Positions 16,291-45,072 of a stretch of DNA of 64,000 nucleotides are shown in pieces. Under the pieces are notes generated by a model. That model had not been told where the DNA came from and made no database searches. It worked only from the letters and a program-made list of their open reading frames with translations. A program made the translations under genes and the position numbers. Positions within the stretch are counted from its first letter, which is position 1. Each line of letters begins with the position of its first letter. The stretch comes from Lytechinus pictus (taxonomy: Eukaryota), in assembly GCF_037042905.1 (NCBI RefSeq), contig NC_087250.1, forward strand, positions 6,450,001-6,514,000, written 5' to 3'.

Positions 16291-16800
16291 GTGAGTTGTT
16301 ATTTTCTAGACGATAAATGCAAACAAATTTGATTTTGTACATTCCAAGCATCTAATTTTCAAGTGGTAGGAAAACGAATAGTTGGTTTCTTAGGTGAAGT
16401 GGAGATTAAATTAAAATTTAGTCAGCTATCAAGAATAAGCAAATTATAAAATCGTTATGTCAAATTCCAATAGTACTAGCTTACATATCGATTGCAGAAT
16501 AAAACCGTGGACTTATAAAAGTAGAGTGTATGTGCACATTACGTGTCATCATGACGATTGAAACGTTTGACCACAAGGTTTTAATGAGGTTTGCATTCGA
16601 GGGCCATCGGGTCATCTTTTCCCTTGATATAAACATGTTTTGGGATCTATTAAAATGGTAATTTTTTGACATGAGGGATTTCTATTGGACATTTTTTGAT
16701 AGTACACTTAAACAGTTCTAAAGTTTTATCGTTAAGTTTCCGACGGCAGGTATGTTTATCATAATGTTGTCATCAATCGCCATTCCTCTTTAATTTATAG

Positions 16801-16849
16801 ATTTCTCGATGGCTGGTCTTTCAACTTTAAAACAACTTTTGGTATTGAG
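16801..16849 (+). CDS. 49-nt micro-exon a1 (FLDGWSFNFKTTFGIE)
   Basis: atttatag / gtgagc; phase 2 to 0; homologous to five other micro-exons. Confidence 0.85.
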
Positions 16850-19800
16850 GTGAGCATGGGTTGTGTCGAAGTATCCAAAAAATATGGTTTCACTCACAAA
16901 TATTTGACAAGAAAAAAAAAGGTCACTAATAAATAAAGATAATTGGGGGTCGGCTCCAAAATGTAGATCATCATTTTTATTTTTTTTGGCTTGGCAGTCC
17001 AAGAAGAGAAAAAGGTGTTTAAAAAGTTCTGAATACATTTTATTTTTCATCATGAAAATCAATAATGCAAGCGCAGAGCGCGAATTGAAAATAATATTTG
17101 AAATTCCGATATGAAATGAGTCAATTTAAGCACTATTTACAGCACTGTGTATAATAGGGAAATTGTGACGTCGATGTGGATAGCACTAAATAAATGATGC
17201 AAGCGCGAAGCGTGAGCTGATATTTTATTATTATTTTAACCTAGGATCGCGACATTTTAGGCCTAAGGATATTTTGTCATCATATAAAAATAATGATTAT
17301 CTTCTATTTCTTTTCCTAAAACGTGTCGTTATTTATTTAAAAAAAAGGGACAATTTAGTTATTATGAATTCATAAAAAAATTATTTCATATTTTTAAATC
17401 TAATAAGCCTAATGAGTGTGCGAAATTTGTTGACAGTGTATGGGGCCTGAAAACTGGAAATTTTAAGTATTTTAGTAATCATAAATAGGATTCATTGGTT
17501 GATATATTTTTAGCAAATAGCGCGAGCGCAAATCGCGATCCAAAATTTTTAAATGGGAGGAATTTAAGTAGTTTGTTATAGAATTAATATGTAGGTGAAC
17601 ATAACTCACCAAAATGCGAGAGCACAGCGTAAGCATAGGCCTTCATTATTTTTAGAATCGTGACACCTGAAAAAGAATATTTAGATAATCTTATATGAAA
17701 TACCCCAAAAAAAAAAAATAGGTGGGCCTACTTAGCAAATAATGCAAGCGCACAAAATGTTGCAAATGTTGATTCACACCATAAAACGTACATTTTCCAG
17801 AGCACTTAAAAAAAAAATTGGAAAAAAAAATGAAAGATCGATGTCCGAGCTGAATTATGTTTTGTATATTGACTTCAAAACTTCATATTTTGAACTATAT
17901 ATCAGGCTATATTGACCAAGATATGCATCTCATCGAACAGGCAATGCAAGTGTGATGCGCGAGCAAAATTTTAGTATAGTGACATTAAATATTTTCAAAA
18001 ATCATTTTCCAAGTCTTCTCATGACCTTACTTTATTCACTCGTCTTCCTTCTTTTTTTTCTCGTATATTTCCCCTTCTTTTTTTTTCTTTTTTCCCTGTT
18101 TTTCCCAATTTATTTGCACCGTCAATAGGGGGAGGAGCCCTCGGGCCCCCTGGATCCGCCTATGTTAGTAGTTGTTATGATGAACACGATGCATATCTAT
18201 TAAGAAATGAATGCGAGCGCTAGCTGAAAACTTTTATAATGACGAAATGAAAAATACATTTTTAGTTGTCAGGTTAGAATATCAAATATTTTCCGCTTGT
18301 GCTTCTCATTTGAATAAAAAAGAAACTATGAGGTCGGGATACGTATATAACTAAACAATTTATTGATGCCAGCGCGAAGCGCGAGCTCATTTTTTTATAT
18401 ACTGACTTAATAAAGGACTAAGGTATAATTCCTATTCTAATTGCTTGTTCTTTTTCTCTCCTTTTTCTCTGTTTCTTAACCCTTTTTTGCGCCACCATGG
18501 GGGGGGGGGCAAATATTTGCCCCTTGGATCGGCCTATGTAGGTTGACTTGAAAAACACTAACACTTACATGTGGGATTAATGAGAGGATGCATACCTCAT
18601 TGATGAAATATTGCGAGCGCGTAGCGTGAGCTGAATTTGATAAAAACCCTTTTTTGTGACCCTGAACAGGATATTTATCTCGCTAAACAGACTTAAAACT
18701 CGAAAACATAGTTTTTGTCTATTATCGTAAAAAGGGGATATTTTAATTCAGCCGCATTAATAATAGCTTTTTGGGTAGGACATATATTTCAATATAAACA
18801 GGCAATACGAGCAATGTTGCGCCCCCGGTCGAAAATGAATTTGCATGAAGCCCCCTAAGTTCAAGGTCAATTTGGCACCCTGGGTTGAACATAAACTTGG
18901 CGCCCCCATGTGAAATATAACTTTGCCCCCCCCCTCCCCCCACCCCCTCTGAAACATGTATTTGTCGCATTATGGTCAAAATTCAAATTAGCGCTCCCCT
19001 AGTTCGAACGTCAATTTGGTGCCCGCTAGATCGAACATTAATTCGGCGGTCCCATAGTTCGAACATCAATTTGGCGCCCCCCTCCCAGTTCAAACATCAG
19101 TTCGGCGCCCTATAGTTCGAAAAGGCATTTTGGCGCCGCCTAGTTCGAACATCAAATCGACGTCCGGGTCAACATCTCCCTCTTTCGTTTCCCATATCCT
19201 TTTCTTTCTTTCTTTTTCTTTCTCTTATCCTCATTCCCCTTCCTTTCTCTTTTTTCTCTCTTTCTTTCCCCCTCTTCCTCTCCCCTATTCTTCTTCTCTT
19301 TTTTTCCTTCCACCCCTCTCTCTCTTTTTCTTCTCTTTATTTTCCCCTTTTCTTCTCTTTTTCCCCATCTTTTCTTTCCCCCTTTTCTTCTCTTTTTTCC
19401 CCGTCTTTTCTTTCTCTGTTTTCCTGTCTCTTTTCTCTTTTTCTTCTCTTCCTTCCCCCTTACCCTCTCTCTTTTCTTCTCTTTCTTCCCATCTTCCTCT
19501 CTTTTTAAATATTATTCTCTTCCTTCCTCTTTTTTCTTCTTCTCCCCCCCCCCCTTTCTTTTCCCTCTTCCTCTTTTTTTCTCTTTCCCCCTTTTTCTTT
19601 TTCTTTCCTTTCCCCCTTTTTCTATTTAATTTTTTTTTCTTCTCTCCCTCTCCTTCCCCCTCTCTTTTTCTTCTCTTCTTTTCCCCTTTTCCTCTCTCTC
19701 TATTTTTGTTATGTTTCTTCCCATCTTTCTCTCTATTTAAATATTCTTATCTTCCTTCGTCTTTTTTTTTCTTCTTCTTTTTCCTCCTTTTCCTTTCTCC

Positions 19801-21322
19801 TTTTTATTCTCTTCCTTTTCCCTCCTCTTTTTTTCTCTTCTTTCCCCCTTTTCTTCTACCTTTTTCTTTGTCTTTCCTTTCCCCCTTTTTTATCCATTCC
19901 TTTTTCCTTCTTACTCTTTTTTCTATTCTCTTATTTTCCATCTTCCTCTCTCTCTCTCTTTTTATTTTCTCCCTTTTCCCCTCCCCCTCCCCCTTTTTTT
20001 TTGGAGCTGGGGGTGGGAGGGGGGGGTGAGGCAGTTCCCCCTCGGCCCCCATGGATCCGCACCTGTTAGAACCCCATGGTCTCGTATCATTTGACCTTTG
20101 GACCTCTCGATGACATTTGATGTATCTGATCATAATTTTACACACACTGCGGACTCGCGGACTATCGGACCCGCGGTCTATCGGGATGTCCCCTCATCGA
20201 CATATCTCGTTTTTCTTTTCTGGGACGCACTGTAAATACCTTTATTCATTTATTTATTTATTTATACATTTATTTATATAGTTATTTCATTATATTCTTA
20301 AATTACTGATTTTCCCGAAACATTCATCAATATTTTGTATTATTTTGGGAGCTATTTTACAACAAACCTTTCTTCAGGGTGAACTTTCCTTCTAAGAGCT
20401 GTTAGAATAACAGAACAGACACAGACCATCAGTATAACAAACGAAATGGCAAATTCGCAAATCACAAAAAGTAGGAATCTGAAACTAATAAGTATAAATG
20501 CAAACATGATCGTGTTGTTTTATTCTGACAGTTACAGCAAGAAGCACTATACTTTACGAAAACAGTAGTACAACGTAGACTATAAATACCAACCGTATAC
20601 AGTCTGCCAGCCAAAATTCGATTGCTTTCGCTAATAATGAATTGTCAAATTGTTATCAATAGTGAAAAGGTATATTTTATAAGCTTTTAATTGATAAATA
20701 TTTCGTCAATTTGGTTTTCAATATCCCACACAAGGATATGTGAATTGAACTATAAAAAAAATTAAATTAATAATTCATTTGTATAAAATGTATTATACTT
20801 TATTTCATATGAATAATTTATGCCAGTATATTCATAAAAAGGCATACTTTTGCTCTGATTCTTTAGATAAAAAGCCTAGAGGGCAATCTATTGTGAAAGT
20901 GTTCTGTATCTTATAGCATTCGAAACATATGTAAACTAAAAACAAATCTGATACCAAATTCAATTTCATATGTATTTTTTTTGTTATTGATATGATATGT
21001 AGCACTGTTTTTTTTTTCTTATCGTATTAATTGTTGTCCAACAATTATCGACTGTTTCATTATTTTGGCCATAATTCAATAGCATCGAATTTTAAGACTG
21101 CTCTCAATAATTAGTTTTTACAGTTATGCCTAGAGATTCAATATTAGATATGATTGTTGTTATTTACTTTAGCTATATGTACCACTAAATTCGTTAATAC
21201 ATTTAGGATTTTCTCCTTTACGATTTGAATAATAGTTCCGTTTGAAAATCATTTCGTTTTTAATTTGATTTAATATAGCTTTATTATCATACACCCATTT
21301 TTTTTTTCATTTTCCTCTTCAG

Positions 21323-21825
21323 ATTAGTCAATATAATCTTGGTAATGACATGAATGATGAAATGACTACCAGGTTATGGAACTGTCTGAGATCCTTCAAC
21401 TTATTGACCCATCTAATCATCTCAGACTCATCTCTCAGTTTCCCTCCATCACCCCCTCAACTGCTATCCGTCACAGCGCTATCGGCTAAGAGAGTGACGT
21501 CACAATGCTATGAAGGACTGATCTCATCGCTCCCTGGGTTGGTAAAGATCGATATCACCACTAATAATGCAGAGGGAGACATACATCAGATTACGGCCGG
21601 TCTCCGTCGGACAGGAGGGCAGAGACTCGATCGGATCATTCTTCGCGGCATTCCGCTATCATTCCCGCCACGGCATGTGGTAAGACCAGGTCTGCTGTTC
21701 GGAAGACATACCGATGACACGACAATTCTTAAATTGGACGGATCTGGAGAAATGAATGAAGAAGGATGTGTTGAGCTCCTCGAGTCGTTGGCATATTTGG
21801 CATCATTCACTGATCTACAACTAAA
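21323..21825 (+). CDS. Large LRR exon A2 (503 nt)
   Basis: Duplicate of A1 with R>G and H>D changes; AG/GT intact. Confidence 0.88.
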
Positions 21826-22336
21826 GTGAGTTGTTATTTTCTAGACGATAAATGCAAACAAATTTGATTTTGTACATTCCAAGCATCTAATTTTCAAGTG
21901 GTAGGAAAACAAATAGTTGGTTTTTTTAGGTGAAGTGGAGATTAAATTAAAATTTAGTCAGCTATAAAGAATAAGCAAATTATAAAATCGTTATGTCAAA
22001 TTTCAATAGTACTAGCTTACATATCGATTGCAGAATAAAACCGTGGACTTATAAAAGTAGAGTGTATGTGCACATTACGTGTCATCATGACGATTGAAAC
22101 GTTTGACCACAAGGTTTTAATGAGGTTTGCATTCGAGGGCCATCGGGTCATCTTTTCCCTTGATATAAACATGTTTTTGGATCTATTAAAATGGTAATTT
22201 TTTGACATGAGGGATTTCTATTGGACATTTTTTGATAGTACACTTAAACAGTTCTAAAGTTTTATCGTTAAGTTTCCGACGGCAGGTATGTTTATCATAA
22301 TGTTGTCATCAATCGCCATTCCTCTTTAATTTATAG

Positions 22337-22385
22337 ATTTCTCGATGGCTGGTCTTTCAACTTCAAAACAACTTTTGGTATTGAG
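22337..22385 (+). CDS. 49-nt micro-exon a2
   Basis: Duplicate of a1 with one synonymous change; AG/GT intact. Confidence 0.85.
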
Positions 22386-22539
22386 GTGAGCATGGGTTGT
22401 GTCAAAGTATCCAAAAAATATGGTTTCACTCACAAATATTTGACAAGAAAAAAAAAGGTCACTAATAAATAAAGATAATTGGGGGTCGGCTCCAAAATGT
22501 AGATCATCATTTTTATTTTTTTTGGCTTGGCAGTCCAAG

Positions 22540-23117
22540 AAGAGAAAAAGGTGTTAAAAAAGTTCAATATCTGCTCTTTCATTTGATACCTTAATAAAAA
22601 AAAAAATGGTCAAGAACTAAAACAGTTCTGTTCCCCCAAAACAATGATTCTATTTCAATAATTTCATTAAATTTCACCGGTTTCCCAAAGAAGCTATCAC
22701 ACGGTAAAAAAAAAAGACTTAATGAATGGCTGATCGTCAACAACAGAGCGGAGTGTTGAGTTAGCCTGAACGCTAGCCTGTTAAACCTGACATTCAAGCC
22801 TTAATTTAAACAACCAGAACTTTTCTTTTTTCTAGCCCATTTTCTGTAATTGAGGTATCAAATTAAAGAGCAGATGTTCAACTTTTTAAACATATGGTTT
22901 TCTTTTTGAAACCCAGATACAGCCCGCCAAGTGACTTTTTGGTATCCCTTCTTCAAACCTTTTTGCTCACTCATGCTTAAATGAGGACTAATGTAAATAT
23001 TTTTAGATGAAAGAGGAGATTTTAAGCTTCACAGTGGTAGGTCATTTGTCTATTACATTTGTGATTAAGTTATGATAAATTATCGATAAATCTCGGTTCC
23101 TTTTTTTGGAAGCACTG
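22540..23117. mobile_element. Partial Tc1/mariner-like MITE, same family as 45180-45965 with the internal part in opposite orientation
   Basis: Ends ...GCACTG followed by TA; shares blocks such as AAGTTCAATATCTGCTCTT and GGTCATTTGTCTAT with the 45-kb copy. Confidence 0.7.
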
Positions 23118-26445: not shown

Positions 26446-28840
26446 CATAAGAGCTGTTAGAATAACAAAACCGACACAGACCATCTGTAACTACCGAAAT
26501 GGCAAAATCACTAATCATAAAAAGTAGGAATCTGAAATTAATAAGAATAAATGCAAACAACATCGTGTGGTTGTTTTTTTCAGACAGTTAAAGCAAGAAG
26601 TAATATACTTTACGAAAAGAGTAGTACAACGTACTCTATAATTACATATGCAAAAATATTAAATCAATTAAAGGAAATCTCTAGAGTATGATTGAATTGA
26701 CAGAATATTCTGGTAAAAATATGTTTTCATTTTCTTCTCAATTTCTAGAAAAAAACTATAAAACATATCTATCATGAAGTTCTTTGTTGTAAATGTTATA
26801 CAACCAAATGTATAGAACCTGCCAGCCAAAATTTGATTGTTTTTTTGCCAATAATGAGTTGTCCAATTTGTATCAATAGTGAAAGAGTATATTTTATACG
26901 TTTTAAATTGATAAAAGAACTCGTCAATTTGGTTGCCAATATCCCACACAAGGATAGGTGAATTTATCTATTGAAAAAATAGAATTAAATAATTCATTTG
27001 TATAAAAATGTATTGCACGTTAGTTCATATGAATAGATTATGCTAATATATTCATTAAAATACATTTTTTGGCTCTGATTCATTAGATAACGAGCCTAGA
27101 AGGCAATCTATTGTGAAAGTGGTCTGTATCTTATTGCATTCGTAACATAAGTAAACTATAAACAAATCCGTTACCAAATTCAATTTCATATGTATTTCTT
27201 TTGTTATTAATATGTTATGTAGTTTTTTTTTTTTTGGCTCTTTTTATATTAATTGCTGTCCAACAAATATCGTCTGTTATATTATTTTGGCCAAAATTTA
27301 ATAGCATTGAATCTTAAAGACTGCTCTAAATAATAAGGTTTTACAGTTATGTCTAGGGATTCAATCTTAGATATAAGATTTGTTTATTTATCTCAGCTAT
27401 ATGAAAAGCTCACTTGCAAAAGGGGTTAGGTGCATTTTTATCAAATTTGATTTTTATGTCTTAATGTATAGATTTTTAGTAGCTCTATTAACTCTTACTG
27501 TGCCAGTACGAATACCCTTTGACTGCCAAGGGTATTCGAGGGAATCCTAAATTGACCGAAACGTAAGCAGAGACTGATTTTAAAACGGTCATAACTCTTT
27601 ACCCGTACATTGTTTAATAAAACCTTCTACACACGAAATCATGCATGGTACATGAACTTTATGATCGTGTTATTATCTTTCTTATTCGCAGTTTTAAAAA
27701 AATGAGAAAAAATTAATATTTTACGTTTTTTTTTTTTCAATAAGTAAAACCTAGAAATTATAATTTCATGAATATTTCAACGAGCAAATAACCTGATGAA
27801 TTGTAGAGATACCAGGAAATTAAGATGATAGAATAAAAGTTCAATGTTTACCCTTTTAAATGACGTAGATATTGATGAAATTAAACGAACAGAAATAACA
27901 AAAAATAATGCTCTTTTGAATGAAATACTATTTTGGCTATTTAAGTTGCTTCCTCTGAAGAATACACACACAATTGAAAGCGTTCTTTTTCAAAAATGGG
28001 CATCGTCTTCGATCAAGTGACCAATCGTAGAACAGCTCTGATCCCCACGCGAACACACACAATAATATATCAGAACCCTGTATCTTCAAAGTGTGGCCAA
28101 CCGTATACTTTTATTCGTGTAGTCTTCAAAATAAGACCCTGTGTATTTTTATTCGTAGTGTAACAAACAAAGTTATTGCCAGTCAGGAGACAAAATATAA
28201 ATTTAAAGATGATATATCAAAATATAGATAAAGAGGGAACGGACAGATTCACTACTAACAAATTTGGGGTATAAAATCCCACAAAATGATAAGCGTTCTT
28301 GGCAAAGTACAAAAAAGCAAGAAAAAAAAACCGTTTATTTTTCGTGAATCAAAGAAGAGGAAATGCAGATCAGTTACAAACAAAAATTCAATACAAATTT
28401 TCAAAAAAGAAAATAGGCCTATTTGTTCTGTATTACTGGTCTGACCAATGTAGCCACCTGTTAACATTCTCTGCGACTACATTCTTTTGTTCATGCCACC
28501 AAGTCATGAACAATAGATGCCCAGACTCTCTTTCATGAGGAATCTCTAATCCGCGCTCCCTCCTGACCTATTATCTAGGATAGCAATTTAGCACAGGATG
28601 TTCTTAGAAATCGGGGCTCACGCACGTCTTTTGATTTGACTATTCAATACTTTCAAAGGTTCCGATATTTATTTCTTTTTACATTTTACTTTTTTGTGGG
28701 TGACCCAGGTAAAAAGAAAACAATTAGCCCCCCCCCCCTACATACAAATCCGGCATCCACCCAGGGTCTCCCCAGCTCGTAGCACTATCCGTAGTAAAAA
28801 AAGAATAATTTGTTCAGATAACATGATGTACAATATATAA

Positions 28841-29033
28841 AGGCCTGGTCACACCGCCCGAGCGTTGTTGGAGCGGAGAGAAAAAATCATCACCGCTCGT
28901 TACTGTTCACCATTTTCGATATCGATTTTTTTTTTTTTTTTTTCGATTCCCCAATTTTGTGAGCGAAATTCGACCCTCTCTCCCTACCGCTCCACGACCA
29001 CTCCAGCAACGCTCGGGGGGTGTGACCAAGCCT
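28841..29033. mobile_element. PIF/Harbinger-like MITE (193 bp, TAA TSD)
   Basis: TAA|AGGCCTGGTCACACCGCCCGAGCGTTGTTGGAG ... CTCCAGCAACGCTCGGGGGGTGTGACCAAGCCT|TAA. Confidence 0.85.
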
Positions 29034-29598
29034 TAAGAAATTCAATATTCAACCCGTTATCGTCATCATTTTCATTTCTACTCTCTAAAGTCGTTTTAAA
29101 ATCTCCTTGATAGTGAAGTCAATGCAGCAACTAACAGGTCGGTCTGATCGGTTTTGTTAATGTAACTGGCAGCTGTCCCGCCTTATCCCTTTCTTTATTT
29201 TCCTCAAAACATCTGATATTGCTGTACATACTCCGTTTACATTTTCTATTACCAATGGTTGGATTTAGTAAAGAAAAAAACATCCACTTTGAAAAAAGAG
29301 ATAAATCTTTAGAGGAATAAAGCGTTATTATCACATTTTTTGCTTCTTCCTATTTTATTCGAGGAGAATATTGAACGATTCACATCTTTGTAAGAAGTTT
29401 AATATGATACTGATAAGCATAACAATGTCAATCATTTCTTTAAAAATGGTTTGGGTTATAAAAAGACAAACGAATATGGCCCGTTATTTACCAGATCTTA
29501 ACTTTATGAAGAGAGAGTTTGGCTGCAGAAGAAATGCAATTGGTATGATCACAACAATTATTTTTGAATGATGATGACTCTGATCGCAATAACATTAA

Positions 29599-30159
29599 AG
29601 TGATTAAAGGAAAATATTCATATCTTTATACATATAATAGAATTCACTGAGCAAAATGCCGAAAATTTCATCAAAATCGGATAACAAATTGTAAAGTTAT
29701 TAAATTTAGTAATATTTTGTGAAAAAGAGTCGTCATGAATATTCATTAGATGGGCTGGTGATGTCACATCCCCACTTTCCGTTTTCTTATGTTATTACAT
29801 AAAATCATAATTATTTCATTATTTCATACTTGTGTGAATAATATGTCTCCCTTATAATGAAATAAATATCTAATGCATTAAATCAGTTGTCAATTCAATT
29901 TTTCTAGTGCTTGGAGGAAAAAAAGATTGAATAAACCTAATTTCATATAATAAAATACAAAAGATCAAGTGGAGATATGACATCATCAGCCCACCTAATG
30001 AATATTCATGACGACTGTTTTCACAAAATATTGCTAAACTTTAAAATTCAATAACTTTATTATTTTATTATCCGATTTTGATGAAAATTTTCAGTATTTT
30101 GCTTAGTGAATTATGCTCTATTTATAAAAATATAAATACTTTCAGCCCAGACAATCCCT
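29599..30159. mobile_element. Palindromic Kolobok-like MITE; second copy at about 36855-37415
   Basis: Long inverted arms (TTTCATCAAAATCGGATAA / TTATCCGATTTTGATGAAA; GTCGTCATGAATATTCATTAG); right end ...CAATCCCT|TTAA. Confidence 0.75.
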
Positions 30160-31698
30160 TTAATAATAATAAGAAGAAGGTGAAGGAGAAGAATAATGAT
30201 AATAATAATTACAATAACAATAACAATAATGATAATAATGATCATGATGATAATCATACTAATAATGATAATAATAATGACAATAATACATGAATAAATA
30301 AATAATGTGTGATGATTGTAGTGCGCAGACGAGAGTTGGAAATGACAGCCTTCTTTATTCATATATTCATAGCGAGAACAATTGTTTGAGAATGCTAAAA
30401 ACAAAGTATAAGACCTTTCTCCCGCCCCCCCCCCCAAAAAAAAAAAAAAAAAAAAAAATCTTCTACAAATCGTGCACATTTGCAGGCAGAAAAAAGCCTT
30501 GACACAAGAATACTACCATACCGGCTTGCAAAAGACCCGATCGATAGCTCATGAATATTCATGTAACAATAGCGAATGGGCGAGAAGTGTTGGGTGAGGA
30601 ACATCGTACCACTCTGTCATTTGTCAATTCCGAGCTGAATGCCTTCGCACATTCGCCTTTGCTCTGCCCACAGAAGTACGTGTATTGCTACACACAACCG
30701 TTATATCACACGTGTCTATAGGGGAAATCTCGATTCAGATCGCGGCAATATCCGAAATCAACTCTTCAAAATATTGATGCAAAAATACAATTTTACTCAA
30801 AAAAATGTCTATGTAAACCACTATTTTTTATATGATGAAATGAATTGTGTATTCCTTGCCAGTATAACAACATAAAAAGCACAGAACATGGTGTTGATTT
30901 TCTGGCTGTAAAATTGGTTAAACAAAAAAAAAAGTTACTTGGGCACGTATACATGCCAATGGCATTAGAGGCCTAAGGGCACAAATAGCTGTCAATGGCT
31001 CTTAAAGAGTTAAATTATACCAAAGAAAAGTTCAAAATTCTTATTAAAACGTGAACTAAAATGGCAAAGAAAAATACTTTTTTTTAAATGGGTTATTTCC
31101 TATTTCAGTTTAGTTGCAAAGGGGTTAGGTCCACACAGATTTTTTTTTTTTGGAAAAGAATAAAAATTTTGAAAACAGGTAGATTTCTCTTATAACCAAT
31201 TGTATGTACTCATGGTAGGGTATCATAAAAATTCAGTTTCGCATAAGAATATTGCAATATGGGAGAATTAAAAATAAACGATTTTCTTGGAGTGGACCTA
31301 ACCCCTTTTGCAACTAAACTCTTCTAAAGAATTCATTTGTCAAAAGGGGTTTGGTACATTTTTAATAAATTTTATTGTTTTCTGTCTCTAAACCTCTAAA
31401 TTTTCAATAGTCACTCTGATGATACCAAAAACAATTGGAAATTCAAATGAAAACGTGAATGAAAGTGGCAAAGAAAAAAAAAATCGCTTTTTTTAATCAA
31501 AAGCGATTGGATTCATTTCAATTTCCTTGCAAAAGGGGTTAGGTCCTTAATGACAATTATTTTTTTAATTATAGAAAAAAAATGAAGACAGGTAGATGTC
31601 TTTTATACCCAATTTTATGTTCACATGATAGGGTAGGACATTTGATTTAATATAGCTTAATCATCATATACACTAATTTGTTTCCATTTTTTCTTCAG

Positions 31699-32219
31699 AT
31701 TAGTAAACATAAGCCTGGTAATGACGTAAATGATGAGATGACTATCAGGTTGTGGAGCTGTCTGAGATCCTTCAACTTACTGACCCATCTAAGCATCTCA
31801 GACTCATCTCTCAGTTTCCCTCCATCACCCCCTCAACTACTATCCGTCACAGCGCTAACAGCTGAGAGAGTGACGTCACAATGCTATGAAGGACTGATCT
31901 CATCGCTCCCTGGCTTGGAAGATATCGATATCGCTATCGATGATGCAGAGGGAGACATACCCCAGATCACGGCTGGTCTTCGTCGGACAGGAGGACAGAA
32001 CCTCACACGCATCAAACTTTGCGCACCGCAATCAATCTCATCAGAAAATAAGTCTATATCGAGAGAGACCGTGAGAGGACTGGGTCTGCTGATCAGACAA
32101 CACACCAAGAACTTGCAGTGGATTGGTTTGTCTGGTGTTATTGGTTTGAATGAAGAAGATCTTGCTGAATTCCTTGAGTCGTCGACATCTTTGGCATCAT
32201 TGGCTCATCTGAATCTAGA
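31699..32219 (+). CDS. Large LRR exon B1 (521 nt, phase 0 to 2)
   Basis: ttcttcag / gtgagt; LTHLSIS, LEDIDIA, LTRIKLC, LQWIGLS, LAHLNL. Confidence 0.9.
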
Positions 32220-33013
32220 GTGAGTCATTTTTTTAAATTTTAATCAACCATACAGCTTTATCTCTTGCCGATATCAACAGTTACTGTCACTGTACGGAAT
32301 GTCAGAAAACAAGGTACATTGTATTTGTTTTTTTATTTCAGGTTTAATTTCCGCAGGGTATTCCTTTCAGTTATAGAACTGATTTACAAAGAGGCCCTTC
32401 AACGATGAAAAGAACATACATATTTTACAATGGACATATAAACAGGATAAAATCATACTATGAAAACAATATTAGGAAACATATACATGCAAAAACAAAA
32501 ACAAATATATAAGAAAACAAGGTACATGTATAGATAGATATTTGCTTCCATAACAGCATGTTAGATCTAGTCTGCTATGCAGACTCTGAATGGCTCGTAA
32601 AGTGGGATCTGCAGCTGGTTTGCGAAGCAAACCAGCCTGAAAGGGCGAGCGAAGCGAGCCACTTCCACATCTGTAGCTCCAGTAGACCTAGTCTGCTATG
32701 CAGACTCCTTGAATCAGCTCAGCTGCTGTGATACACACACTGCAGATGTGGGTCTACATTTGTAGACTTTGTTAGATCCATGTTAACAGGAAGGCGACTC
32801 TGACTTGTAAATTGTAACTTAGATCGGCTACAAAGATTTGGCACATAATTTAGTCCGTCTTTTTTTTAATATTACTAAATTGACTTTGCAGCAGCCATTC
32901 GGATGTCCTCAGAATAGCTCGAAACCATAACCTACATCCCTCTGACCCTATCTATATCGGGAGTGACAAAAGCAATTTGAAGTAAAACAATAGTAGTAGT
33001 ACTACTACTACTA

Positions 33014-33048
<35 letters not shown>

Positions 33049-33221
33049 CGCAGTAGTAGTAGAATAATGATATTAGCAATAACAATACTTAATTGCCCAG
33101 GTGCTCTCTGCGTTATTACGACATTAATTTCACGATGATTTATGTGGTTGGCAAAATAAATATATGCCCCCATATTTGTGGCTTATCTGTATTATGTCTT
33201 CCCACTTGAAGAGGTCCGTAA

Positions 33222-33522
33222 ATACTACTAATAATAATACATGTGATTTGTAATGTGCCAAATCCACTCTGCAGAGTGCCCAAGGCGCAGTAAAAGAAAA
33301 AGAGATAGAGAACAGTACAAATAAAAAAGATAAATTAAGGAACAATCAAGAACAGGAAGCATTAAACAGACGAGGTGCAATCACGGATAAGCAGGGGAAG
33401 GTCATTCCAGTGAACAGGGCCAGCGTGAGCAAAAGCCCGTGCCCCCATCTCTTAGCAGATAAGGGAACAGCTAAGAAACCAGAGTTGGATGAACGAAGGG
33501 ACCTGACAGGAGTGTATTTGTT
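33222..33522 (-). mobile_element. 5'-truncated L2 3'-end fragment; second copy at about 40675-40985
   Basis: Minus strand encodes KYTPVRSLRSS..FLAVP...GARAFAHAGPVHWNDLP (one small indel), followed by a GCGCCTTG...ATTACAAAT...(TAT)n tail typical of L2. Confidence 0.85.
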
Positions 33523-34311
33523 AATCTAATTAGTATCGTGGAGCAGAATAAATAATTGCAAAGAATACTAGAAGGTCAACTGAGGGCCTACGAGACCGCT
33601 GTTATTTAATTGCTTTATGTTACTAATATCGAATGGTAGTCAATTGCATAAGAAGATTTTACCACATTACCCATATAAATGTAAACAATTTAAAGTCTAC
33701 AATCATTATTACCTTTTGATACCGGCACAGAGTAAAATAACCTCAAGGCACTCGTTGAAGTTTTATTAACAACCCTAAAAGGAACATTCACGATTAGCTA
33801 CTTAAAGAATGTTTATCCAGAAAAAATACCTCAGCAGAATAATCTCCGGGATGTAATAAATTTTTTATTTTTTTTTCTTTGGGGGCGGGGGGGGGGGGCA
33901 GACATGACGAATGGAACCAAAACAAATATTTTCAAACAATCTGGGAGTTAGCAAAACTATTTTTGATACAAAAATATAATTTGGTCATATGGATTTCGGC
34001 ATATTATTCAGAAAATAATATAATTTTCACGTTGTTCCTTTCCATTTTTCTCAAAGTTCCGGGGGCCATGACCCGCATGTCCTTCCTATCTGTACTTTAG
34101 TGGCGAAAACGATTTAAGTAGTTGATGAAAAGTTCAACGTTATATGAGCTTACGATTTCGACGGCATAAACACATCAATCGTTTTGTGCATCAGTGGTAT
34201 CAGGATCAAAATCGACATCAAGATTCCGATGACACAGGTTCTCACCTGAATAATGTGCCACTATTTTCCCTCTAACCAATTTCGATTTTCTATATTATTA
34301 CCATTATACAG

Positions 34312-34360
34312 ATGTCTTCATAGTTGGTGTTTCAACTTTGATGAACTGTCAGGCGTTCAG
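34312..34360 (+). CDS. 49-nt micro-exon b1 (CLHSWCFNFDELSGVQ)
   Basis: tatacag / gtaggt; phase 2 to 0. Confidence 0.87.
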
Positions 34361-34912
34361 GTAGGTATATTGTCATGATTGTGTCGGTCCTGTACTTACC
34401 GAATATCGCCTTGAATTCCAAAGATGTTTTAACCAACTTATATCAGGCTAAGTGATATATGGGTATAAGAATATAGGAATATATTCCTATATCAACAATT
34501 GATTTTAAAAAATCGTCATTAAAAAGATTTTTTTTTAAATATATGTTTGGTGGGGACACATTATTGCCATGGTCCAATTGAAATGTTATATTTTCAGATT
34601 TGCGAAACAAAATCCTTTTAAACATAATCTTCATTGATGAGTTTTATATTTCACAGGTTTTTTGTGTTTTTTGTTTATATTTCTGTTATTTTAAAATATC
34701 TGATTAATTTCAAACAGATGTAAAGCTTTGTTGATTGGTCAGTAATGTAAACCTTATTCGAATATTTCATTAGCTATTCAATGCTTTTTTCCCCCAGTAG
34801 AATATAAATTTGGCATTTTTTCGCCCCATATGAAGAAATTTAGATCTGGTGTCCTGTTTTTGATGCTTTCATGTTTATTTGAAATAGCAGTTAGAATACC
34901 TTCCTTACATAT

Positions 34913-35573
34913 CGTCGGCGTTCATCCGAACCGTCGTATCAGTCAATTTTTGTCAAAAAAATCGATTTTGAGATATTTGCAGAAAATTAATGTACAAGTC
35001 CTATTCAATTCATAAATTAATTTCTAGGCAGCAATTTATTTTAGTTTGTGAGATATGATGGAATTTTCACGGCGATGACATACATTTTTTTTTATTAAAT
35101 GCGCAAATCCCATTGGAAACGTGTACTGTAACAGAGCGATACGACGTTTTGACTGACCGCGATTTCAGTGCGCGCGGTCAACCAAACTGTCTATCGGCCA
35201 TCTGCGCTGCATTGACTTTGCACGTGAAAAGCGATACGACGTTTTGACTGACCGCGCGCATTCAAATCGCGGTCAGGGTTGTTGTTTTCCCTATGGCGTT
35301 TTCGTACAGGGGAAATCTAAACCGCTCAAACCGAAATTACAAGCCCGGAGCTCTTTTGAGATATTTTCTATAATTCTTGGTTTTGTGCAAAGATAAGGAT
35401 ACCATTGTCAAGCAATTACCTTGGTCTTTCCAACCATGTATTTTTCTAGCAATGAATATGCTGGAAGCCCGGAGAACTAAGTGTGACAATTATAGTAACT
35501 TTAAAGTCGATTTTCTCTGAAATGGGTTTTCAACCTTCGTATGTGGATACGTCGGTTTGGATGACCGCCGACG
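34913..35573. mobile_element. 661-bp non-autonomous TIR element with ATAT TSD (alternatively TA); possibly Sola1-like
   Basis: 28-bp TIRs CGTCGGCGTTCATCCGAACCGTCGTATC with 3 mismatches; the empty site TTACATATGTATT is present in the duplicate at about 42348-42360. Confidence 0.9.
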
Positions 35574-36110
35574 ATATGTATTGATTGGATATTAGAAAGC
35601 GACTTAAGAAGATTGGCTGAGATTTTCAACCAATCCCATGATCGAGACTTTACTTAGTCAAGTCAAGAATACGCGAGGGGGTAGGTTGCATCGTTTTGGA
35701 TTAAGGCTTTTATTTAAATCGTTTAATTCACTTAATTATTGACCCTACTAATTTTTATCTAAAAAAAATCACACCACAACCATTTTGGGAGCACATGCAT
35801 TAAGAAGGTATGGTAAACACATTGTATAATGACACACGATTTCGGGGATTCAGCTAATCAAAAGATTCGCTTCTATTTTTTTGTGAAAAAAAAAAGTTAT
35901 CCATATATCACTTTCAACAGGATTTCCCCCAGAATGTCTCCCTTTAATTGATTTTTTTTTAAAGTGTATAGATATTTTTTTTTTTGCTGAAATACCTGCA
36001 ATTTTCTTCATGAAATGCATAAAACTGTTGAGAATAAACATTATCGTAAACTTATCGGTTTAACACAACATAATTGTTATTCATCTTTTCTATATTATAT
36101 TTTCCTTCAG

Positions 36111-36293
36111 ATTACCAAATGTTGTTGGAGCGGAGAGAAAAAATCATCACCGCTCGTTACTGTTCACCATTTTCGATATCGATTTTTTTTTTTTTTTTTT
36201 CGATTCCCCAATTTTGTGAGCGAAATTCGACCCTCTCTCCCTACCGTTCCACGACCACTCCAGCAACGCTCGGGGGGTGTGACCAAGCCTTAA
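36111..36293 (+). other. Chimeric pseudo-exon at the duplication junction: intact acceptor, 5 LRR codons, then MITE sequence to a stop
   Basis: tttccttcag|ATTACCAAATGTTGT matches the exon C1 start and then switches to the 28864 MITE sequence; TAA at 36291-36293. Confidence 0.75.
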
Positions 36294-39150
36294 GAAACTT
36301 AATATTCAACCCGTTATCGTCATCATTTTCATTTTTACTCTCTAAAGTCGTTTTAAAATCTCCTTGATAGTGAAGTCAATGCAGCAACTAACAGGTCGGT
36401 CTGATCGGTTTTGTTAATGTAACTGGCAGCTGTCCCGCCTTATCCCTTTCTTTATTTTCCTCAAAACATCTGATATTGCTGTACATACTCCGTTTACATT
36501 TTCTATTACCAATGGTTGGATTTAGTAAAGGAAAAACATCCTCTTTGAAAAAAGAGATAAATCTTTAGAGGAATAAAGCGTTATTATCACATTTTTTGCT
36601 TCTTCCTATTTTATTCGAGGAGAATATTGAACGATTCATATCTTTGTAAGAAGTTTAGTATGATACTGATAAGCATAACAATGTCAATCATTTCTTTAAA
36701 AATGGTTTGGGTTATAAAAAGACAAACGAATATGGCCCGTTATTTACCAGATCTTAACTTTATGAAGAGAGAGTTTGGCTGCAGAAGAAATGCAATTGGT
36801 ATGATCACAACAATTATTTTTGAATGATGATGACTCTGATCGCAATAACATTAAAGTGATTAAAGGAAAATATTCATATCTTTATACATATAATAGAATT
36901 CACTGAGCAAAATGCCGAAAATTTCATCAAAATCGGATAACAAATTGTAAAGTTATTAAATTTAGTAATATTTTGTGAAAAAGAGTCGTCATGAATATTC
37001 ATTAGATGGGCTGGTGATGTCACATCCCCACTTTCCGTTTTCTTATGTTATTACATAAAATCATAATTATTTCATTATTTCATACTTGTGTGAATAATAT
37101 GTCTCCCTTATAATGAAATAAATATCTAATGCATTAAATCAGTTGTCAATTCAATTTTTCTAGTGCTTGGAGGAAAAAAAGATTGAATAAACCTAATTTC
37201 ATATAATAAAATACAAAAGATCAAGTGGAGATATGACATCATCAGCCCACCTAATGAATATTCATGACGACTGTTTTCACAAAATATTGCTAAACTTTAA
37301 AATTCAATAACTTTATTATTTTATTATCCGATTTTGATGAAAATTTTCAGTATTTTGCTTAGTGAATTATGCTCTATTTATAAAAATATAAATACTTTCA
37401 GCCCAGACAATCCCTTTAATAATAATAAGAAGAAGGTGAAGGAGAAGAATAATGATAATAATAATTACAATAACAATAACAATAATGATAATAATGATTA
37501 TGATAATAAGCATACTAATAATGATAATAATAATGACAATAATAAATGAATAAATAAATAATGTGTGATGATTGTAGTGCGCAGACGAGAGTTGGAAATG
37601 ACAGCCTTCTTTATTCATATATTCATAGCGAGAACAATTTTTTGAGAATGCTAAAAACAAAGTATAAGACCTTTCCCCCGCCCCCCCCCCCCCAAAAAAA
37701 AAAAAAAAAAAAAAAATCTTCTACAAATCGTGCACATTTGCAGGCAGAGAAAAAGCCTTGACACAAGAATACTACCATACCGGCTTGCAAAAGACCCGAT
37801 CGATAGCTCATGAATATTCATGTAACAATAGCGAATGGGCGAGAAGTGTTGGGTGAGGAACATCGTACCACTCTGTCATTTGTCAATTCCGAGCTGAATG
37901 CCTTCGCACATTCGCCTTTGCTCTGCCCACAGAAGTACGTGTATTGCTACACACAACCGTTATATCACACGTGTCTATAGGGGAAATCTTGATTCAGATC
38001 GCGGCAATATCCGAAATCAACTCTTCAAAATATTGATGCAAAAATACAATTTTACTCAAAAAATTTCTATGTAAACCATTATTTTTTATATGATGAAATG
38101 AATTGTGTATTCCTTGCCAGTATAACAACATAAAAAGCACAGAACATGGTGTTGATTTTCTGGCTGTAAAATTGGTTAAACAAAAAAAAAGTTACTTGGG
38201 CACGTATACATGCCAATGGCATTAGAGGCCTAAGGGCACAAATAGCTGTCAATGGCTCTTAAAGAGTTAAATTATACCAAAGAAAAGTTCAAATTCTTAT
38301 TAAAACGTGAACTAAAATGGCAAAGAAAAATACTTTTTTTTAAGGGGTTATTTCCTATTTCAGTTTAGTTGCAAAGGGGTTAGGTCCACACAGATTTTTT
38401 TTTTTTGGAAAAGAATAAAAATTTTGAAGACAGGTAGATTTCTCTTATAACCAATTTTATGTACTCATGGTAGGGTATCATAAAAATTCAGTTTCGCATA
38501 AGAATATTGCAATATGGGAGAATTGGAAATAAACGATTTTCTTGGAGTGGACCTAACCCCTTTTGCAACTAAACTCTTCTAAAGAACTCATTTGTCAAAA
38601 GGAGTTTGGTACATTTTTAATAAATTTTATTGTTTTCTGTCTCTAAACCTCTAAATTTTCAATAGTCACTCTGATGATACCAAAAACAATTTGAAATTCA
38701 AATGAAAACGTGAATGAAAGTGGCAAAGAAAAAAAAATCGCTTTTTTAATCAAAAGAGATTGGATTCATTTCAATTTACTTGCAAAAGGGGTTAGGTCCT
38801 TAATGACAATTATATTTTTATTATATAGGAAAAAAATGAAGACAGGTAGATGTCTTTTATACCCAATTTTATGTTCACATGATAGGGTAGGATATCATGA
38901 CAATTTAGTTTCTCATAAGAATATTGCAATAAGTGAGAAAAAACATATTTTTTTCTCGGAATGGTCCAAAGTGGATCTTACCCCTTTCGCAACTCAACTC
39001 TTTATATGTACTACTCAATTTGTTAATACCTTTAGGATTTTCTCCTTTAAGTTTTGAATAATAATTCCGTTTGAAAAACATTTCGTTATTCATTTGATTT
39101 AATATAGCTTAATCATCATATACACTAATTTGTTTCCATTTTTACTTCAG

Positions 39151-39671
39151 ATTAGTAAACATAAGCCTGGTAATGACGTCAATGATGAGATGACTATCAG
39201 GTTGTGGAACTGTCTGAGATCCTTCAACTTACTGACCCATCTAAGCATCTCAGACTCATCTCTCAGTTTCCCTCCATCACCCCCTCAACTACTATCCGTC
39301 ACAGAGCTAACAGCTGAGAGAGTGACGTCACAATGCTATGAAGGACTGATCTCATCGCTCCCTGGCTTGGAAGATATCGATATCGCTATCGATGATGCAG
39401 AGGGAGACATACCCCAGATCACGGCTGGTCTTCGTCGGACAGGAGGACAGAACCTCACACGCATCAAACTTTGCGCACCGCAATCAATCTCATCAGAAAA
39501 TAGGTCTGTATCGAGAGAGACCGTGAGAGGACTGGGTCTGCTGATCAGACAACACACCAAGAACTTGCAGTGGATTGGTTTGTCTGGTGTTATTGGTTTG
39601 AATGAAGAAGATCTTGCTGAATTCCTTGAGTCGTCGACATCTTTGGCATCATTGGCTCATCTGAATCTAGA
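39151..39671 (+). CDS. Large LRR exon B2 (521 nt)
   Basis: Duplicate of B1 with S>N, A>E, K>R and I>V changes; AG/GT intact. Confidence 0.9.
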
Positions 39672-40462
39672 GTGAGTCATTTTTTTTAATTTTAATCAAC
39701 CATACAGCTTTATCTCTTGCCGATATCAACAGTTACTGTCACTGTACGGAATGTCAGAAAACAAGGTACATTGTATTTGTTTTTTTATTTCAGGTTTAAT
39801 TTCCGCAGGGTATTCCTTTCAGTTATAGAACTGATTTACAAAGAGGCCCTTCAACGATGAAAAGAACATACATATTTTACAATGGACATATAAACAGGAT
39901 AAAATCATACTATGAAAACAATATTAGGAAACATATACATGCAAAAACAAAAACAAATATATAAGAAAACAAGGTACATGTATAGATAGATATTTGCTTC
40001 CATAACAGCATGTTAGATATAGTCTGCTATGCAGACTCTGAATGGCTCGTAAAGTGGGATCTGCAGCTGGTTTGCGAAGCAAACCAGCCTGAAAGGGCGA
40101 GCGAAGCGAGCCACTTCCACATCTGTAGCTCCAGTAGACCTAGTCTGCTATGCAGACTCCTTGAATCAGCTCAGCTGCTGTGATACACACACTGCAGATG
40201 TGGGTTTACATTTGTAGACTTTGTTAGATCCATGTTAACAGGAAGGCGACTCTGACTTGTAAATTGTAACTTAGATCGGCTACAAAGATTTGGCACATAA
40301 TTTAGTCCGTCTTTTTTTAATATTACTAAATTGACTTTGCAGCAGCCATTCGGATGTCCTCAGAATAGCTCGAAACCATAACCTACATCCCTCTGACCCT
40401 ATCTATATCGGGAGTGACAAAAGCAATTTGAAGTAAAACAATAGTAGTAGTACTACTACTAC

Positions 40463-40502
<40 letters not shown>

Positions 40503-41761
40503 CGCAGTAGTAGTAGAATAATGATATTAGCAATAACAATACTTAATTGCCCAGGTGCTCTCTGCGTTATTACGACATTAATTTCACGATGATTTATGTG
40601 GTTGGCAAAATAAATATATGCCCCCATATTTGTGGCTTATCTGTATTATGTCTTCCCACTTGAAGAGGTCCGTAAATAATAATAATAATAATAATAATAA
40701 ATGTGATTTGTAATGTGTAAAATCCATTCTGCAGAGTGCTCAAGGCGCAGTAAAAGAAAAAGAGATAGAGAACAATACAAATAAAAAATATAAATTAAGG
40801 AACAATCAAGAACAGGAAGCATTAGACAGACGAAGTGCAATCACGGATAAGCAGGGGAAGGCCATTCCAGTGAACAGGGCCAGCGTGAGCAAAAGCCCGT
40901 GCCCCCATGTCTTAGCAGATTAGGGAACAGCTAAGAAACCAGAGTTGGATGAACGAAGGGACCTGACAGGAGTGTATTTGTTAATCAAATTAGTATCGTG
41001 GAGCAGAATCATTAATTGCAAAGAATACTAGAAGATCAATTGAGGGCCTACGAGACCGCTGTTATGTAATTGCTTTGTGTTACTATTATCGAAGGGTAAT
41101 CAATTACATAAGAAGATTTTACCACATTACCCATATAAATGAAAAAAAAATTAAAGTCTACAATCATTATTACCTTTTGATACCGGCACAGAGTAAAAAA
41201 ACCTCATAGCACTCGTTGAAGTTTTATTAACAACCCAAAAAGAACATCCACGATTAGCTACTAAAAGAATGTTTATCCAAAAAAAATACCTCAGCGGAAT
41301 AATCTCCGGGATGTAATAAAAAGTTTATTTTTTTCCTTGGGGGGGGGGGCAGACATGACGAATGGAACCAAAACAAATATTTTCAAACAATCTGGGAGTT
41401 ATCAAAACTATTTTTGATACAAAAATATAATTTGGTCATATGGATTTCGGCATATTATTCAGAAAATGATATAATTTTCACGTTGTTCCTTTCCATTTTT
41501 CTCAAAGTTCCGGGGGCCATAACCCGCATGCCCTTCCTATCTGTACTTTAGTGGCGAAAGCGATTTAAGTAATTGATGAAAAGTTCAACGTTATATGAGC
41601 TTACGCTTTCGACGGCATAAACACATCAATCCTTTGTGCATCAGTGGTATCAGGATCAACATCGACATCAAGATTCCGATGACACAGGTTCTCACCTGAA
41701 TAATGTGCCACTATTTTCCCTCTAACCAATTTCGATTTTCTATATTATTACCATTATACAG

Positions 41762-41810
41762 ATGTCTTCATAGTTGGTGTTTCAACTTTGATGAACTGTC
41801 AGGCGTTCAG
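41762..41810 (+). CDS. 49-nt micro-exon b2
   Basis: Identical to b1; AG/GT intact. Confidence 0.87.
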
Positions 41811-42949
41811 GTAGGTATATTGTCATGATTGTGTCGGTCCTGTACTTACCGAATATCGCCTTGAATTCCAAAGATGTTTTAACCAACTTATATCAGGCTA
41901 AGTAATTATGGGTATAAAAATATAGGAATGTATTCCTATATCAACAATTGATTTTAAAAAATCGTCATTAAAAAGATTTTTAAAAATATATATGTTTGGT
42001 GGGGACACATTATTGCCAAAGTCCAATTGAAATTTTATATTTTCAGATTTGCGAAACAAAATACTTTTAAACATAATCTTCATTGATTGGTTTTATTTTT
42101 CACAGTTTTTTTGTTTGTTTATATTTCTGTTATTTCAAAATATCTGATTAATTTCAAACAGATGTAAAGCTTTGTTGATTGGTCAGTAATGTAAACCTTA
42201 TTCGAATATTTCATTAGCTATTCAATGCTTTTTTCCCCAGTAGAATATAAATTTGGCATTTTTTCGCCCCATATGAAGAAATTTAGATCTGGTGTCCTGT
42301 TTTTGATGCTTTCATGTTTATTTGAAATAGCAGTTAGAATACCTCTCTTACATATGTATTGATTGGATATTAGAAAGCGACTTAAGAAGATTGGCTTAGA
42401 TTTTCAACCCATCCCATGATCGAGATTTTTACTTAGTCAAGTCAAGAATACGCAAGGGGGTAGGTTGCATCGTTTTGAATTAAGGCTTTTACTTAAATCG
42501 TTTAATTCACTTAATCATTGACCCTAATATATTTTTATCTAAAAAAATCACACCACAACCATTTTGGGAGCACATGCATTAAGAAGGTATGGTAAACACA
42601 TTGTATAATGACACACGGTTTGGGGGATTTAGCTAAACTAAAGATTCGCTTCTATTTTTTTTTGTGAAAAAAAAGTTATCCATATATCACTTTCAAAAGG
42701 ATTTGCTCCAGAATGTCTCCCTTTAATTGATTTTTTTAAGTGTATAGATATTGATTCGAAAAACTCTCTCTGATTTCGGCGGTATCCCCCATTTTCATTA
42801 CTATTATTTTTTCTTTCTTTTTTTGCTGAAATACCTGCAATTCTCTTCATGAAATGCATAAAACTGTGGAGAATAAACATTATCGTAAACTTATCGGTTT
42901 AACACAACATAATTGTTATTCATCTTTTCTATATTATATTTTCCATCAG

Positions 42950-43251
42950 ATTACCAAATGTTGTCTATCTTCTGATATGACTACTAGAATATGGTCCTGT
43001 CTCAGATCCTTCACCTCACTTAACCATCTCAGAATCTCAGATTCATTGCTCAGTTTCTCTTTATCACCTCCTGAGCTACCGTCCGTCACAAAGCTATCAG
43101 CTAATAAACTGACGTTACAATGCTATAAAGGGTTAATCTCATCACTACCTGGGCTGCAAGATATTGATGTCCAAGATGCAGCTAGAGATGACTTTGTTGA
43201 ATTTGTCGAGTCTTCAACACGTTTCTCATCACTGCTTCGACTTGAGATAAA
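42950..43251 (+). CDS. Shortened LRR exon C1 (302 nt, phase 0 to 2)
   Basis: ttccatcag / gtgagt; ITKCCLSSDMTTRIWSCLRSFTSLNHLRIS...LLRLEI. Confidence 0.88.
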
Positions 43252-45072
43252 GTGAGTTTTCATATTCTCATTATTTGCCAAGGATGTTCATTGTTACAAT
43301 AGCCGTATACAATGTTCTGGTTATGTGTTCAAGGCGCTCTTATATTAAACCGATAGAGTCAAGCGCCCCGCCCTTTTCTTAAAACGGTCATTTATAATCG
43401 GACATCACGCTGAATGTAATATGTTGGCCTATTGTAATATCCTAAACTGATTAAACAAATCGTTTTAGGTAAACTTTAATGATATCACAATACGTAGTAG
43501 GTTACACGTAGTTTAAAGTAGTTCCAATTAAACTGAATTCCGTTTTCATCGCTCTCATTTATACCGATACAGGATGTGCAGGCAGGAGGCAACATTATTC
43601 GGAAAATATGTTAAGAAAAATGGTCGAGGTACCCTTAAGGATTTTCCTCGCTCGTAGTCAAAATTCACCTTTACAGCTGGTTGGTTGGAAATTATTAATT
43701 AAAATAGGAGCCATAAGGTATATCTTACAAAGTTATACGTCTATTACATCACGCACAGCCCTTTCTCGCATATCAAGATGCGGAATTATAGTTCAAAGTG
43801 TAATTAGAGTTTTACAAAATAGCCCAGATTTAGAGGGCTATTTATTCCATCATTCTAGTTAACGAGATGGTCGAATGTATAAATTTCATTTGTACCAACG
43901 TAAGCTTCATCTGATGACAGTAGATAGGTATCTCAGGGAAGTGAAAATCTGAGACTATGTTGTTTGTTCGGAGAGTTACAAAGTCAAGTGCCAAAAGAGT
44001 CATATTCCGTTTTTGCCGGTAGCCTGAAAATTTATGATCGTTTGTCATATTGATCTTTCTTAAAGTATAGTTATCTCCTAATGTGGATACTCTTTTGCCT
44101 TTTCGCTTTAATCGGTTGTAACATAAAATAACATAGTTCATAATAGCAAGTTGGATAAACTAGGCAATAAAGTAATAACGATCCTTTAATAATATCCTGA
44201 AAAATAGCGGAGATTCTCTTATCTCCATACACTAACCTGAATACAAAACACACTTCATGGGCTAAATAAGCGACTCGCATGCCTTCCGTTATTTATAAGT
44301 TCATTGGTAGCTAGTTGGGCACTGCTTTCCGAATGGTTTTCTATCATCATAGCTCCTAGAGATGACTTTTGTATCTTCTCTATAAATCGATTTTCCTAAA
44401 TTCATCTCACTACGATGTGTTGACGCTTGAAGTGATTATTGCACATTACCTTCATAACAATATCTAACATGTCTAACTATTGAAAATTCAACCATATCTT
44501 TCGTGTTTTGTCTATTCGATTGAATTCTGAAGTCGCTTGTCTAATTTCCTCCATCACAATGGCGATTTCTTTTTCCTCCATGAATTATATGTTCTGTTAT
44601 GTTTTATCGACTACGCTTATGAAAATAATGATACGAGGTAAAAAAAATTGTAATGTGATGAAGTCTCATTCTGATCAATATGATCACGATGATCACCATG
44701 ATCAGTAATGAATCTCGAAATACCTCTTTTATCAAGCATCAGTTTTGTATATACCGAGATAGTGACTTGTTTACTGCGCTTGATATGAAAATAATCATCG
44801 GAGAATCGACAACAGACATTTTGTTTTTGGTCCTCTCTCACTTTATCTCTCTCTTACCGGTCACAATTCCAATGTTAGAACATCCAAAGAGCAACCCATT
44901 ACAGTGTTTGTCACAATATTATTGTCGTTATACCTATAATTATGAAAATATCATTATGATTATCAAAATAACTTTAAAGCTTGTAACAATTTTCGAGGCA
45001 CTTAGTACACATCTGAATAATGTTTTATGGTTTATTATCATTCAGAGGAATTTCATTTTTTCTACAATTTAG

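Follow-up and report, generated by a model that had tools for sequence, protein, structure and literature searches.

In the sea urchin Lytechinus pictus, the gene LOC129263472 (RefSeq) carries a tandem duplication of about 7.26 kb whose joint sets an intact splice acceptor and the first 15 nt of an exon directly against the body of a miniature inverted-repeat transposable element (MITE). The stretch analysed here, called the window, is 64,000 nucleotides of the plus strand of contig C6 (6450001-6514000), and positions are given in its own numbering unless a contig is named. Through the duplication the gene gained one in-frame module, i.e., exon E4 plus micro-exon b1′ (570 nt, 190 residues). 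The by-product is a complete copy of the intron between micro-exon b1 and exon C1, including its acceptor and a 15-nt exon stub, which now lies in the new intron of 4.8 kb that separates b1 from E4. We consider it probable that this stub is an ordinary scar of microhomology-mediated duplication and that its orphan acceptor is mostly skipped.

Table 1. Features at and around the duplication joint
Feature	Position	Strand	Remarks
3.5-kb dispersed repeat hosting the MITE	27486-31013	.	in the intron ahead of exon E3; genome copies
Complete MITE with flanking triplets	28838-29036	.	193 bp; TAA 28838-28840, element 28841-29033, TAA 29034-29036
Duplication unit, copy 1	28864-36120	+	most of the MITE, E3, b1 and the intron behind it, ending 10 nt into the C1 stub
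Exon E3	31699-32219	+	repeat module copy 1; exon-by-exon mapping of P0001
Micro-exon b1	34312-34360	+	49 nt, donor CAG/GTAGGT; exon-by-exon mapping of P0001
Orphan 3′ splice site	36081-36110	+	pyrimidine tract and AG (36109-36110); matches the real C1 acceptor at 29 of 30 nt
Stub of exon C1	36111-36125	+	15 nt, ATTACCAAATGTTGT; same letters as 42950-42964
Open frame	36111-36293	+	60 codons and TAA (ITKCCWSGEKK...GVTKP); translation
Duplication joint	36121-36125	+	GTTGT microhomology
Truncated MITE copy	36121-36290	+	lacks the first 23 nt; 99% identical to 28864-29033
Duplication unit, copy 2	36121-42964	+	truncated MITE, E4, b1′, first 15 nt of the real C1
Weak candidate donor	36216-36221	+	TTT/GTGAGC; with 36111 gives a 105-nt in-frame cassette, 35 codons, no stop; GTRAG scan
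Weak candidate donor	36395-36400	+	CAG/GTCGGT; 284-nt cassette holding the TAA
AATAAA	36572-36577	+	first one past the stop; T-rich stretch behind it
Exon E4	39151-39671	+	repeat module copy 2; acceptor joined to b1 in RefSeq models
Micro-exon b1′	41762-41810	+	same sequence as b1
Real exon C1	42950-43251	+	

A tandem duplication joined through five bases

The exon map rests on the RefSeq protein 'uncharacterized protein LOC129263472 isoform X2' (P0001, 1191 aa), to which the translation of E4 (query 39151-39672) is 100% identical. Mapped on the plus strand between 15815 and 57246, P0001 alternates large exons with 49-nt micro-exons, and its junctions include 34360>39151 and 41810>42950.

Repeat finding in the window revealed a direct tandem repeat whose period is ~7.26-7.45 kb. 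Globally aligned, 28864-36125 and 36121-42964 are 97.82% identical over 6568 columns, with 143 substitutions and three large indels (+198 at 38893-39090; 665 nt, 34909-35573, only in copy 1; +63 at 42751-42813). Judging by this divergence of ~2.2%, the duplication is fairly recent. The 665-nt block, which sits within the b1-to-stub intron and is matched by many contigs in four public runs, is probably a transposon: either it entered copy 1 once the duplication had occurred, or copy 2 has lost it.

Homology switches at the joint. Left of 36126, the sequence is that of 42814-42964, which comprises the end of the intron plus the initial 15 nt of C1 (97% identity for 35975-36125), while from 36121 on it is that of 28864 onward (99% for 36121-36420 versus 28864-29163). 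The shared GTTGT occurs at 28864-28868, 36121-36125 and 42960-42964, and the microhomology is exactly 5 nt long because the parents differ at the bases on either side. The copies stand head-to-tail with one novel joint and zero inserted bases, and there is no longer homology between the parents. This microhomology exceeds chance: at least 5 nt were shared in 0.86% of 200,000 random position pairs drawn from the window (P = 0.0086). The joint sequence (35975-36300) is present in full just once in the assembly.

As E3 and b1 together measure 570 nt, the gain from the duplication is exactly 190 in-frame residues. E3 and E4 differ at five bases and the two modules in P0001 at four residues (S/N, A/E, K/R, I/V), i.e., about four of the five changes are non-silent, which would fit a repeat surface whose evolution is relaxed or diversifying.

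The other partner in the joint, entered at base 24, is an element with terminal inverted repeats of ~36 nt (32/36 paired). A search of the 812-Mb genome returned at least 86 matches, and, besides both window copies, 20 places align over 160 or more of the 197 query bases with 81-93% identity. The ends of the element are conserved in ten copies with unrelated flanks. Among the nine copies readable at both ends, window copy included, the two flanking triplets are identical (TAA or TTA) in six and differ at one base in three; 17 of the 18 triplets fit TWA. A 3-bp TWA target-site duplication is the criterion for PIF/Harbinger-type elements. Short, non-coding and dispersed in many copies, the element fits, by these sequence features, a PIF/Harbinger-type (Tourist-like) MITE. 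In the ten best copies the flanks are those of the window, since the MITE is nested in a 3.5-kb dispersed repeat, copies of which are 91-94% identical on contigs C6, C8, C13, C1 and C4 and share a start near 27486, one of them extending to 31013. Nested in this repeat there is also another MITE-like element, ~370 bp long and with inverted arms of 55 nt that are 91% complementary (29686-30057, with its counterpart at 36942-37313); its contig depth is by far the highest of the stretch in the four runs, which points to a very abundant family.

The initial annotation had described the joint as a fusion of the first 15 nt of C1 to a Harbinger-like MITE through GTTGT. The tandem alignment, the letters at the joint, the terminal inverted repeats and the TWA sites all bear this out, with two refinements: C1 starts at 42950, and the complete MITE is 28841-29033, nested in 27486-31013.

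The orphan acceptor and the sequence behind it

Within 30 nt, the orphan acceptor (tttccttcag) differs from that of the real C1 (tttccatcag) at a single base, T36106 versus A42945 (position -5). T is also the base at -5 in two paralogous acceptors (48302 and 53077), so that A42945 in the real C1 is the derived and slightly weaker state. The 151 nt before the joint carry four differences between the copies, against a background of 143 in 6568; at background divergence, the acceptor region gives no sign of selection to keep or disable the orphan site, although so few changes are expected in 151 nt that selection would be invisible anyway.

The last codon of b1 is complete, which puts 36111 in phase 0, and the frame runs on into the MITE up to a TAA (36291-36293) that is the element's right target-site duplication. 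A 3′ splice site, an in-frame stop and a poly(A) signal, i.e., the elements of an alternative last exon, are thus present, as far as sequence can tell. At the local AT content, one AATAAA per ~800 nt is expected, which leaves the hexamer at 36572 within chance. The predicted RNA fold of 36081-36300 is unremarkable (z = -0.62). The initial annotation had correctly described the site as intact and in phase with b1, opening a frame of 60 residues that ends in a stop at 36293, with an AATAAA at 36572; it was also right that the full-length protein requires skipping this site, given that the RefSeq protein uses 34360>39151.

A downstream donor is the other component by which an internal exon could be defined. 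Donors were compared with the U1 consensus, using a rough matrix. All 12 mapped donors of the gene fit this consensus at six or more positions, and ten of them contain GTRAG. On the plus strand of 36111-39150, GTRAG occurs at 36216, 36646, 37853 and 38933, the first two preceded by TTT. The candidate at 36216, absent from the initial annotation and used in no RefSeq model, scores ~0 bits by hand with this rough matrix, compared with 3.0-8.9 for true donors. Both it and the candidate at 36395 are weaker than all 12 mapped donors, so the stub appears poorly defined as an exon. An exon-definition partner is therefore predicted in weak form only; a terminal exon defined by the AATAAA is a possible arrangement of the same sequence.

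All three RefSeq models (X2, 1191 aa; X1, 1227 aa; an older model of 964 aa) skip the stub. The older model (P0078) has slightly different residues in both modules, yet it contains two tandem ISKHKPGN modules in the order E3-b1-E4-b1′-C1. The 60-residue peptide gave no match among proteins of 106-2000 aa or of 33-105 aa in a collection of 5.8 billion clusters, a shared-word search in which a blank is weak evidence, and it matched no Pfam family.

A search of public sequencing runs with 33800-43300 listed 16, no RNA run being listed as holding the stretch. Contigs of four of them (X1, X2, X4 and X15) were inspected over 33800-39800; these are assembled contigs, in which starts, ends and levels are unreadable. 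Neither 34360>36111 nor 34360>39151 is among the 15 joints listed, and with 282 more joints, 1888 loose ends and 45,620 pieces outside this list the result speaks neither for nor against use of the site. No listed contig piece spans 36121, gaps of this kind carrying no weight as evidence, and run X4 consists mainly of repeated elements, with a depth of 0 over the b1 bin. One contig of 323 letters from run X1 aligns to 36126-36408 with no mismatch, and its first 40 letters fit nothing. It was considered as a different left flank of the joint and set aside: in the main MITE family, 11 additional bases stand immediately ahead of the position equivalent to 36126, where a break is expected for a contig entering from another family member via shared 31-mers. 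The 40 unmatched letters have about the length of the main family's left arm, which suggests that the contig comes from such a member.

Weighing the explanations

Tandem duplications mediated by microhomology can arise by end joining or by replication template switching. Applied to LOC129263472, one break would have fallen 15 nt into exon C1 and the other 23 nt into the PIF/Harbinger-type MITE of the upstream intron, and either process could have united the broken ends through the 5-nt microhomology. The orphan acceptor, with transposon sequence and weak donors behind it, would now be mostly skipped, and occasional cryptic splicing to it is likely, as noise rather than as an evolved switch. 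The initial annotation had proposed that the site might act as a switch between a short isoform, or nonsense-mediated decay (NMD), and the full-length one. The structure on which this idea was built holds, whereas the function is without support so far, as judged from the RefSeq models, the peptide searches and the neutral divergence (4/151); a regulatory switch is at present speculation. Several observations weigh against a silent scar. The orphan acceptor matches or exceeds the real C1 acceptor in quality, having kept the ancestral T at -5, and lies 1.75 kb from the b1 donor, compared with 4.8 kb for E4. No donor is required for a terminal exon, and the AATAAA at 36572 has a T-rich tail, while the GTGAGC at 36216 would yield a neat 105-nt in-frame exon. 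Moreover, the low donor scores depend on a rough matrix, gene-model pipelines often omit truncated or NMD-prone isoforms, and the blanks in the protein collection count for little.

These same observations would suit use of the orphan acceptor in a sizeable share of transcripts, which we regard as unlikely but worth spelling out. It could take three forms: an alternative last exon with the stop at 36291 and polyadenylation after 36572, whose protein would end after three modules and 60 transposon-derived residues; a 284-nt poison cassette leading to NMD; or a 105-nt in-frame cassette. An intact, ancestral-type, in-phase acceptor nearer to the b1 donor than E4, 60 open codons, the AATAAA and the candidate donors at 36216 and 36395 are what such use would need, but the site is skipped in three of three RefSeq models, the peptide has no match in either size range, the candidate donors score below every mapped one and a hexamer of this kind is expected about every 800 nt. 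Alternatively, the stub could be a decoy exon as described by Parra et al. (2018), which would engage the b1 donor or splicing factors unproductively, promote retention of the b1-E4 intron and lower the output of the gene. An intron of more than 1 kb, a full-strength acceptor and weak donors are ingredients named in that study (PMC6097662); the decoy exons it describes are conserved, however, and need both splice sites, while the stub is new and its donors are weak, so that we give this explanation little credence. Closely related, and highly doubtful in our view, is the idea that the duplication installed its own brake, the orphan acceptor and its transposon tail competing with the E4 acceptor as a terminal exon, a poison or in-frame cassette, or an intron-detaining decoy; how much truncated product is made relative to the full-length one would then depend on tissue or infection state.

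Finally, the joint itself might be an assembly artefact, with two haplotypes of an unduplicated locus set in tandem. Sea urchins are highly heterozygous, a divergence of 2.2% with large indels would suit two alleles, and the joint is found once in the assembly, with no independent record seen across it. Against this stands the reasoning that an overlap assembler should be unable to unite haplotypes via five bases at non-homologous positions, for which a spanning read would be needed. The older model P0078 has the same tandem order despite its different residues, and exactly one module is added, in frame. An artefact is accordingly the explanation to which we assign the very lowest probability, and a genuine duplication scar remains the one we prefer.

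Genomic setting and known systems

Besides P0001, exon E4 matched 75 proteins (76 in all), every one of them echinoid, many of which carry a NACHT domain (PF05729), and the repeat modules of the gene are homologous to the C-terminal region of NACHT proteins. By language-model features, the nearest clusters are leucine-rich repeat (LRR) families, with scores of 0.90-0.91 that serve as a lead only. The Pfam LRR models and PDB sequences gave no match, the PDB sequence search returning nothing meaningful, and Pfam on P0001 yielded three weak matches, all unrelated.

Neither the window nor any RefSeq model of the gene contains a NACHT domain. On the plus strand, the closest NACHT frame (C6:6386942-6388441) lies ~77 kb upstream of the first mapped exon. 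The RefSeq model of the array may be 5′-incomplete because it lacks NACHT and begins at an internal methionine. Plus-strand NACHT open frames cluster on C6 (6239445-6853980), starting at ~6.239, 6.387, 6.672 and 6.853 Mb, and for at least three of these, related repeat exons follow tens of kb farther downstream. Just upstream of the gene, the minus strand holds a frameshifted long terminal repeat (LTR) retrotransposon with zinc knuckle, aspartyl protease, reverse transcriptase and integrase (3-5165) and, beside it, a fragment of an apurinic/apyrimidinic endonuclease (APE)-type long interspersed nuclear element with endonuclease and reverse transcriptase (5758-8031); the two may cut the array off from its 5′ exons. 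A 49-bp tandem repeat array of ~11 units occupies 9823-10361.

The gene has also undergone a second, independent intragenic tandem duplication (11468-17029 versus 17027-22565, 98.1% identical), here called duplication A. Its joint, a 3-nt overlap, is intronic and lies 178 nt past micro-exon m1. With both breakpoints in introns, it added module E2 + m2 (552 nt) in frame and left no exon stub. Long CT-rich low-complexity tracts (13490-14579 and 19058-20094) were copied together with it.

If the orphan site is silent, as we think likelier, the locus is a clean example of how an array of the echinoid nucleotide-binding LRR (NLR) type grows, through two independent module-sized duplications that are each in frame. 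If the site is used, it would be a natural case dated by ~2% divergence in which one duplication added an immune-type repeat module together with a competing, truncating splice site, and would be helpful for studies of how splice sites compete and of what array expansion costs. Should the duplication act as its own brake, it would offer an animal counterpart to the transposon-controlled dosage of plant NLR genes, arisen in one mutational step. A warning for annotation applies as well: as the stub's 15 nt are those at the start of the real C1, short junction reads may be assigned to the wrong site.

Transposable elements can be exonised, Alu and MITE exons being examples. The stub resembles such cases in that the body of the would-be exon is transposon sequence in an accidental open frame. 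It differs from them in its acceptor, which is a copy of a constitutive host acceptor brought by the duplication rather than a site supplied by the transposon.

Three published systems invite comparison, and the L. pictus case differs from each in being known from sequence alone. One is the human intragenic tandem duplication of TRPS1 exons 2-4, which alters splicing (PMC6913153). Like it, the block studied here is a direct tandem copy within one gene, with short microhomology at a single joint and expected effects on splicing; unlike it, the L. pictus block is an in-frame module that leaves the long product intact, and its breakpoints lie in an exon and a MITE. Decoy exons, which promote intron retention (Parra et al. 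2018, PMC6097662; PMC7373989), share with the stub the character of a cryptic exon-like unit with a good acceptor in a long intron, rarely or never included. Those described are conserved, have two working splice sites and come with measured retention, in contrast to a young scar with weak donors. In the Arabidopsis NLR gene RPP7, the transposon COPIA-R7 supplies a proximal polyadenylation site, which lies in the LTR, was mapped experimentally and is controlled by EDM2 and histone H3 lysine 9 dimethylation (H3K9me2) (PMC7529245). Here, too, intronic transposon sequence in a gene of the NLR family could end transcripts early and thereby set the level of full-length message, but in an animal and by a hexamer behind an orphan acceptor. 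On balance, the stub would work most like a cryptic or decoy exon, or like the RPP7 poly(A) site if its hexamer were used; we file it under neither, as the defining features of both lie at the level of the transcript.

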